Sequence record: NC_054917.1
Direction: 5' to 3' (one strand)
DNA from: Escherichia phage vB_EcoM_G50
Length of the DNA: 64,000 nt
Within the stretch, counting starts at the first letter, position 1. Every line of letters starts with the position of its first letter. Of the stretch, positions 8,001 through 8,456 are shown in pieces. Below the pieces are notes generated by a model that did not search any database, was not told the DNA's origin, and saw nothing but the letters and a program-made list of their open reading frames with translations. Position numbers and translations under genes: made by a program.

Positions 8001-8456
8001 TTATTTTAAATCGTCTGCCCAATCGAGTTTAAGAGGCTCTTTGTATTCACGATCTAATACGACCGGAATTTGTACATCACCGCTAAATGATAAGGGTCCA
8101 ACATTATAAGACAATGTTATATGCGGTGTGTAATCATCAAAATCATGTGTAGCACCTAGTGCCCGCGCATACATGTGTCTACAGCGCAGATATTCAGAAT
8201 CTAGCACAAGTACAAGAGTCGATCCATCTTGTGTTTTCCATACTTCTAAATGTCCAGAAGAAGCTACTTCAAAACTTCCGCTTGATGGAACATACGGAAC
8301 ATTTACTCTTGAATAACATATGGTCGAATGAATTTTTTCTCTAGGAACTGGATTAGGAACACGTAAAGAGCGCTGGAGTTCTTCCAGCGCATCAAGTGTT
8401 AATTCTGAAAACTTAGCTGCTACATAAAGACCCGTTGAAAAGTCTTTAAATTCCAT
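8001..8456 (-). CDS. 57B: 2H phosphoesterase, T4 gp57B (Acb1-type cyclic-nucleotide phosphodiesterase)
   Basis: 151 aa; two H-x-T/S motifs (IHSTICY and PHITLSY) typical of 2H/LigT fold; position 57A-57B-ipI as in T4. Confidence 0.75.

Follow-up and report, generated by a model that had tools for sequence, protein, structure and literature searches.

The closest described relative of the gene studied here is gene 57B of phage T4, which was found through activity-guided fractionation as an enzyme degrading 3'3'-cGAMP (Hobbs et al. 2022, PMC9117128). In the pocket of its product, Acb1, the residues Y12, W74, F107 and W147 stack on the bases, the adenine N6 is read by E141, and residues 145-152 form a lid closing over the ligand (PMC9117128). 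Catalysis by the HxT/HxT tetrad H44, T46, H113 and T115 is of the acid-base type, needs no metal and takes place on the 3' side of adenosine; the reaction leads via a cyclic phosphate intermediate to GpAp, and the H44A/H113A mutant is catalytically dead (PMC9117128). Acb1 activity was described at about 15 min into T4 infection, and transcript atlases assign acb1 to the middle/late class. Growth of T4 delta-acb1 is normal without CBASS but impaired more than 300-fold on CBASS hosts. Transposon profiling also identified acb1 as required on CBASS hosts only. In later work T4 Acb1 was found to cleave 2'3'-c-di-AMP and cA3 as well, so that it trips Panoptes guard systems; phages escape Panoptes through inactivation of acb1. 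Deletion of the lid abolished the activity in a Panoptes activation assay. Disrupted acb1 genes occur in some T-even phages, e.g. Bas43.

The DNA investigated here is a stretch of 64,000 nucleotides from Escherichia phage vB_EcoM_G50 (NC_054917.1), referred to as the window. From its sequence and the comparison with known proteins, we consider it almost certain that positions 8001-8456 are acb1 (57B) of a T4-like Tequatrovirus phage, coding for a single-domain 2H phosphodiesterase that cuts CBASS cyclic nucleotides. The following features were assigned to the gene and its neighbours:

8001-8456, minus strand: coding sequence of acb1 (gene 57B), from the list of open reading frames; 151 codons and a TAA stop at 8001-8003.
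8322-8330, minus strand: first catalytic motif, His43-Ser44-Thr45 (T4 H44, T46), from the alignment with HTT of FBB1 Acb1.
8115-8123, minus strand: second catalytic motif, His112-Ile113-Thr114 (T4 H113, T115), from motif and alignment.
8004-8027, minus strand: C-terminal lid LDWADDLK, residues 144-151 (T4 145-152), including the stacking Trp146 (T4 W147); identical to T4.
8456-8698, minus strand: gene 57A, tail-fibre assembly chaperone (Pfam GP57, E 2.6e-50); its TAA stop and the ATG of acb1 have base 8456 in common.
8698-9411, minus strand: gene 1, coding for dNMP kinase and opening the overlapping run 1-57A-57B (Pfam DNMK, E 4.8e-104; ATAATG overlap).
7641-7928, minus strand: ipI, internal protein I, downstream neighbour (Pfam IPI_T4, E 2e-53; PHROG 4363, internal virion protein).

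The open reading frame starts with ATG, and all 151 residues of its product are identical to T4 gp57B/Acb1 (NP_049750.1; genome NC_000866). The Pfam family Acb1 (PF23474) was matched over its complete profile (1-144 of 144) with 202.7 bits and E 2.6e-60, the cut-off being 27 bits. Among solved structures, the best match was Acb1 of Erwinia phage FBB1 (PDB 7T26/7T27; E 4e-62, 68% identity, residues 8-148), followed by a second, far weaker match to PDB 9Q2G, which is deposited as an Acb1-type enzyme (E 0.004). Furthermore, the ligand-pocket residues of T4 (Y12, W74, F107, W147 and E141) are all present as Y11, W73, F106, W146 and E140 of the window protein, and the catalytic residues H43, T45, H112 and T114 align with H44, T46, H113 and T115 of T4 and FBB1. 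The sequence-only reading had proposed an Acb1-type 2H phosphodiesterase with anti-CBASS function and had named histidines lying off the Acb1 catalytic residues as the finding that would speak against it. The proposal is supported by the complete identity with gp57B, and His43 and His112 fall on H44 and H113 of T4. A compact 2H phosphoesterase fold is expected by homology, given the 68% identity to crystal structure 7T26; a single-sequence AlphaFold2 model of the window protein had a pLDDT of 37.8 and a pTM of 0.30, too low for the model to be informative. The enzyme activity is predicted from the sequence identity with the tested T4 protein. None of the results obtained spoke against the assignment. 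In general, acb1 of this phage is the characterised T4 gene with an identical protein; it is already known and adds nothing new about Acb1.

The two motifs from which the sequence-only reading started, IHSTICY and PHITLSY, are both present in the 151-residue translation, at residues 42-48 and 111-117, and contain the only two H-x-[TS] triplets of the protein. The distance of about 90 residues given for them has to be corrected, as His43 and His112 are 69 residues apart. At the composition of the protein, 0.75 such triplets are expected by chance, and the Poisson probability of two or more is about 0.17. The assignment as a 2H enzyme from the motif pair alone was rejected, since two triplets fall within chance. 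Thus, the motif pair is not significant by itself, and homology is needed to give it weight. In a family alignment of eight members with 100-32% identity, in which the relatives came from six Straboviridae genera and one jumbo phage, the residues G9, Y11, H43, T45, S49, V82, R93, G101, Y109, P111, H112, T114 and Y138 were invariant. This set includes the catalytic tetrad with its two HxT halves, and also Y11, the first stacking tyrosine.

Over positions 7000-10000 the window has 99.9% identity with Escherichia phage REP4, 840 phage records match this region, and the feature coordinates of the REP4 annotation agree with those of the window to within a base. The window belongs to a Tequatrovirus, as judged from these matches. 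The gene order 1 - 57A - 57B - ipI is the same as in the T4 annotation. A conserved 57A-57B-ipI position had also been suggested beforehand, and it was confirmed by the Pfam matches of the neighbours (GP57 and IPI_T4) and by the T4 annotation. Two plus-strand open reading frames, 8159-8344 and 8173-8316, were set aside as mechanical antisense frames within a conserved coding sequence. A search of the phage collection with tblastn detected Acb1 in 1469 records. Of these, 497 are at least 99% identical (Tequatrovirus); 388 records with 80-90% identity form a class of their own, including Mosigvirus and other enterobacterial T4-like phages, and the tail of the identities reaches down to 31%. Krischvirus, Tulanevirus, Lazarusvirus and Schizotequatrovirus phages likewise have 57B directly after 57A, and a dNMP kinase gene is found upstream in three of these four. 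Mosigvirus shows the same placement after 57A. In T4-like genomes the place directly downstream of 57A is typical of Acb1, not strictly defining. For phage BYEP02 (OR757454.1) the Acb1 match falls into two pieces spanning 530 nt rather than 453, so that its acb1 may contain an insertion or a frameshift, which recalls the disrupted gene in Bas43.

The product of ipI is an injected inhibitor of a GmrSD-type nuclease. Two further open reading frames of the window, at 3645-4208 and 4333-4806 (both minus strand), form a tandem of paralogues with 187 and 157 amino acids and 33% identity. Both belong to PHROG 2280, a family without functional assignment, and neither matches a family in Pfam. They begin with MKTYAEFLTEA and MKSYAQFLNEA, similar to the N-terminus of the window IPI, MKTFKEFTS; an N-terminus of this type is the capsid-targeting sequence in T4 internal proteins. 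By this resemblance the two may represent additional injected internal proteins, perhaps with an anti-defence function. In T4 this place is taken by other genes (e.7, e.8, rnaC and rnaD).

A cluster of tRNA genes is located at 5565-6586 (minus strand). It comprises 11 genes compared to eight in T4, the additional ones being tRNA-His(GTG), tRNA-Asn(GTT) and tRNA-Tyr(GTA). The window lacks segB, the homing-endonuclease gene that separates tRNA-Arg from tRNA-Ile in the T4 cluster. The tRNA with CAT anticodon is assigned to Met by ARAGORN and to Ile in the REP4 and T4 annotations. An Rfam scan of the whole window at gathering thresholds yielded the 11 tRNAs only; no structured RNA family was detected in or beside acb1.

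Compared with T4, the coding sequence of acb1 contains eight nucleotide differences, all of which are synonymous. With 104.7 synonymous and 348.3 non-synonymous sites, this result has a probability of about 8e-6 under the neutral expectation. The gene is intact, and the comparison indicates purifying selection on it. The junction of 57A and 57B reads GAATGATGG in T4 and GAATAATGG in the window. One G-to-A change near 8456 turns the 57A stop from TGA into TAA and the upstream ATG of 57B into ATA, and the stop/start overlap is TAATG in the window compared to ATGA in T4. In the T4 annotation gp57B carries one extra N-terminal methionine (MMEFK...), i.e. a start one codon earlier. Since the upstream ATG reads ATA in the window, translation would have to begin at the second ATG, and for the same reason the residue numbers used here are those of T4 minus one. 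The second ATG is the only one in the window and in REP4, which suggests that it may also be the true start in T4.

For the expression of acb1, three sites in the surrounding DNA were recorded:

9437-9462, minus strand: MotA-type middle-promoter-like site, AATGCTTCA with an 11 nt spacer and TATAAT, 26 nt upstream of the gene 1 ATG; from a consensus match.
9054-9061, minus strand: putative late promoter with the T4 consensus TATAAATA, located within gene 1 and ahead of 57A-57B; from a motif search.
7948-7979, minus strand: perfect hairpin of 14 bp in the spacer between 57B and ipI, dG -15.5 kcal/mol, without U tract; from an RNA fold.

In the 1-57A-57B run, stops and starts overlap (ATAATG at 8698, TAATG at 8456), and no clear Shine-Dalgarno sequence was detected upstream of acb1. 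Both observations suggest translational coupling to 57A, which would probably act via the TAATG overlap. T4 has the MotA-type site as well, differing at two positions that both fall in the spacer, and the 22-nt context of the late-promoter site is identical in T4. 57B is probably co-transcribed with genes 1 and 57A from the MotA-type middle promoter and the late promoter, and the predicted sites are consistent with the published middle/late timing. In the region 7300-10200 a generic sigma-70 scan returned 12 promoter-like sites against 10.8 expected and a terminator scan returned one terminator-like site against 1.4 expected, i.e. no enrichment in either case. The T4-specific MotA-box and late-promoter motifs are more informative than the generic sigma-70 scan. 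The spacer between 57B and ipI has 72 nt and differs from T4 at four positions; its hairpin overlaps a sigma-70-like sequence, TTTACA-17-TACTAT with extended TG (7948-7987, minus strand). A nearly identical promoter-like site with the same hexamers and TG is found again downstream of ipI, at 7621-7593.

Many GenBank and RefSeq records, including RefSeq T4, carry the product name 'RNA ligase', and the window protein matches PHROG 755, labelled in the same way, with E 5.2e-68. According to these labels the protein could be a LigT-like 2'-5' RNA ligase, or a 2',3'-cyclic phosphodiesterase in RNA end-healing. The gene is located near the phage tRNA cluster, the 2H fold is common to LigT and Acb1, and the published Acb1 route opens a 2',3'-cyclic phosphate, so that some cyclic-phosphodiesterase chemistry is intrinsic to the enzyme. 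However, Acb1 was the sole Pfam family matched by the window protein at E up to 0.1, no LigT or 2'-5' RNA ligase family being found, and the NCBIfam scan of the protein matched no family at all. The label itself is an automatic family name and not the result of an experiment, whereas the identical T4 protein was isolated as a cGAMP-degrading enzyme and its deletion affects growth on CBASS hosts only. No experiment on RNA ligation by Acb1 was found in the Acb1 literature searched. We therefore regard a role as RNA ligase or in RNA end-healing as very improbable. The label traces to the description of PHROG 755 and reflects the 2H fold common with LigT; it is a misnomer. Most GenBank and RefSeq phage records, that of T4 among them, name the gene product 'RNA ligase' or 'hypothetical protein', and 'anti-CBASS protein Acb1' was the product name for one of 60 among the matches listed. 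In these databases the annotation lags behind systematically, and the lag goes back to PHROG 755. That the H-x-T/S motifs arose by chance in a frame of unrelated or no function, at the frequency calculated above, or that the frame is a decaying pseudogene like those known from Bas43 and other T-even phages, has a negligible probability and was excluded, as the frame is intact, of full length and identical to the active T4 enzyme, its divergence from T4 is exclusively synonymous, and the motifs are invariant across the divergent homologues of the family.

For Acb1 as the preferred assignment, a mechanism can be proposed in which sequence identity, motifs and gene context derive from this analysis, while chemistry, substrates and phenotype are taken from the literature on the identical protein. 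During infection the enzyme would bind the cyclic di- and trinucleotide messengers from host CBASS cyclases. The bases would be stacked between Y11, W73, F106 and W146, with Glu140 reading the adenine N6, and the C-terminal lid (residues 144-151) would close over the ligand. His43, Thr45, His112 and Thr114 would then act as acid-base catalysts without a metal and cleave the 3'-5' bond 3' of adenosine, by way of a 2',3'-cyclic phosphate intermediate. The linear product, e.g. GpAp, would be unable to activate CBASS effectors, so that abortive infection would be prevented.

The analysis establishes that the phage has a broad-spectrum anti-CBASS nuclease whose gene copy is intact and wild-type. 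Judged from published work on the identical protein, it should resist CBASS signalling with 3'3'-cGAMP, cUA or cAAA and should remain sensitive where the signal is cGG or 3'2'-cGAMP. Vulnerability is also expected towards Panoptes guards, which sense the depletion of their decoy nucleotides. The assignment can be used for an annotation fix replacing 'RNA ligase' and for host-range prediction of therapeutic or environmental T4-like phages. A second, housekeeping role of Acb1, e.g. the opening of 2',3'-cyclic phosphate RNA ends or the clearing of other host or phage oligonucleotides, appears improbable. Slight hints in this direction may be seen in the conservation of the protein, at 99% identity or more in about 500 Tequatrovirus genomes and without any non-synonymous change compared to T4, in the retention of acb1 though it is dispensable without CBASS and a liability against Panoptes, and in its place beside the tRNA cluster, in an operon whose other genes, for dNMP kinase and the tail-fibre chaperone, are essential. 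Frequent encounters with CBASS in natural hosts account for the conservation of Acb1 equally well.

In comparison with the known systems, T4 Acb1 is identical to the window protein over its 151 residues and agrees with it in the order 1-57A-57B-ipI, the upstream promoter-like motifs and the catalytic and ligand-binding residues. FBB1 Acb1 shares 68% identity over 141 aligned residues, the tetrad and the equivalents of Y11/Y12, the C-terminal tryptophan and E140/E141. It differs by HTT in place of HST in the window, by one additional residue after position 79, and at two stacking positions, with Phe for W73 and Tyr for F106 of the window protein. Other 2H phosphoesterases are the LigT-type 2'-5' RNA ligases, coronavirus NS2, rotavirus VP3 and the avian poxvirus cGAMP PDE. 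The LigT-type and other 2H enzymes have the 2H fold, the two HxT/S motifs and metal-independent transesterification in common with Acb1. In contrast, they show no Pfam-level match to the window protein, act on substrates such as 2'-5' oligoadenylate and RNA ends, and are without the Acb1 lid and the U-shaped pocket for cyclic oligonucleotides. The phage 2H enzyme PDE-9 (PDB 9Q2G/9Q2Y, deposited as 'Anti-CBASS protein Acb1') shares the 2H core, the catalytic histidines and the degradation of 3'3'-cGAMP (bioRxiv 10.1101/2025.08.21.671373). However, it is only a distant match (E 0.004). Its lid is N-terminal instead of C-terminal as in Acb1 (bioRxiv 10.1101/2025.08.21.671373). Furthermore, PDE-9 cleaves 2'3'-c-di-AMP poorly and therefore, unlike T4 Acb1, does not set off Panoptes (bioRxiv 10.1101/2025.08.21.671373). 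Apyc1, the poxins and the Acb2 sponge are functional analogues, as all of them remove cyclic-nucleotide immune signals of the host. Their folds and mechanisms are unrelated to Acb1: Apyc1 is a zinc enzyme with MBL fold, the poxins have the poxin fold, and Acb2 acts by sequestration without cleavage.
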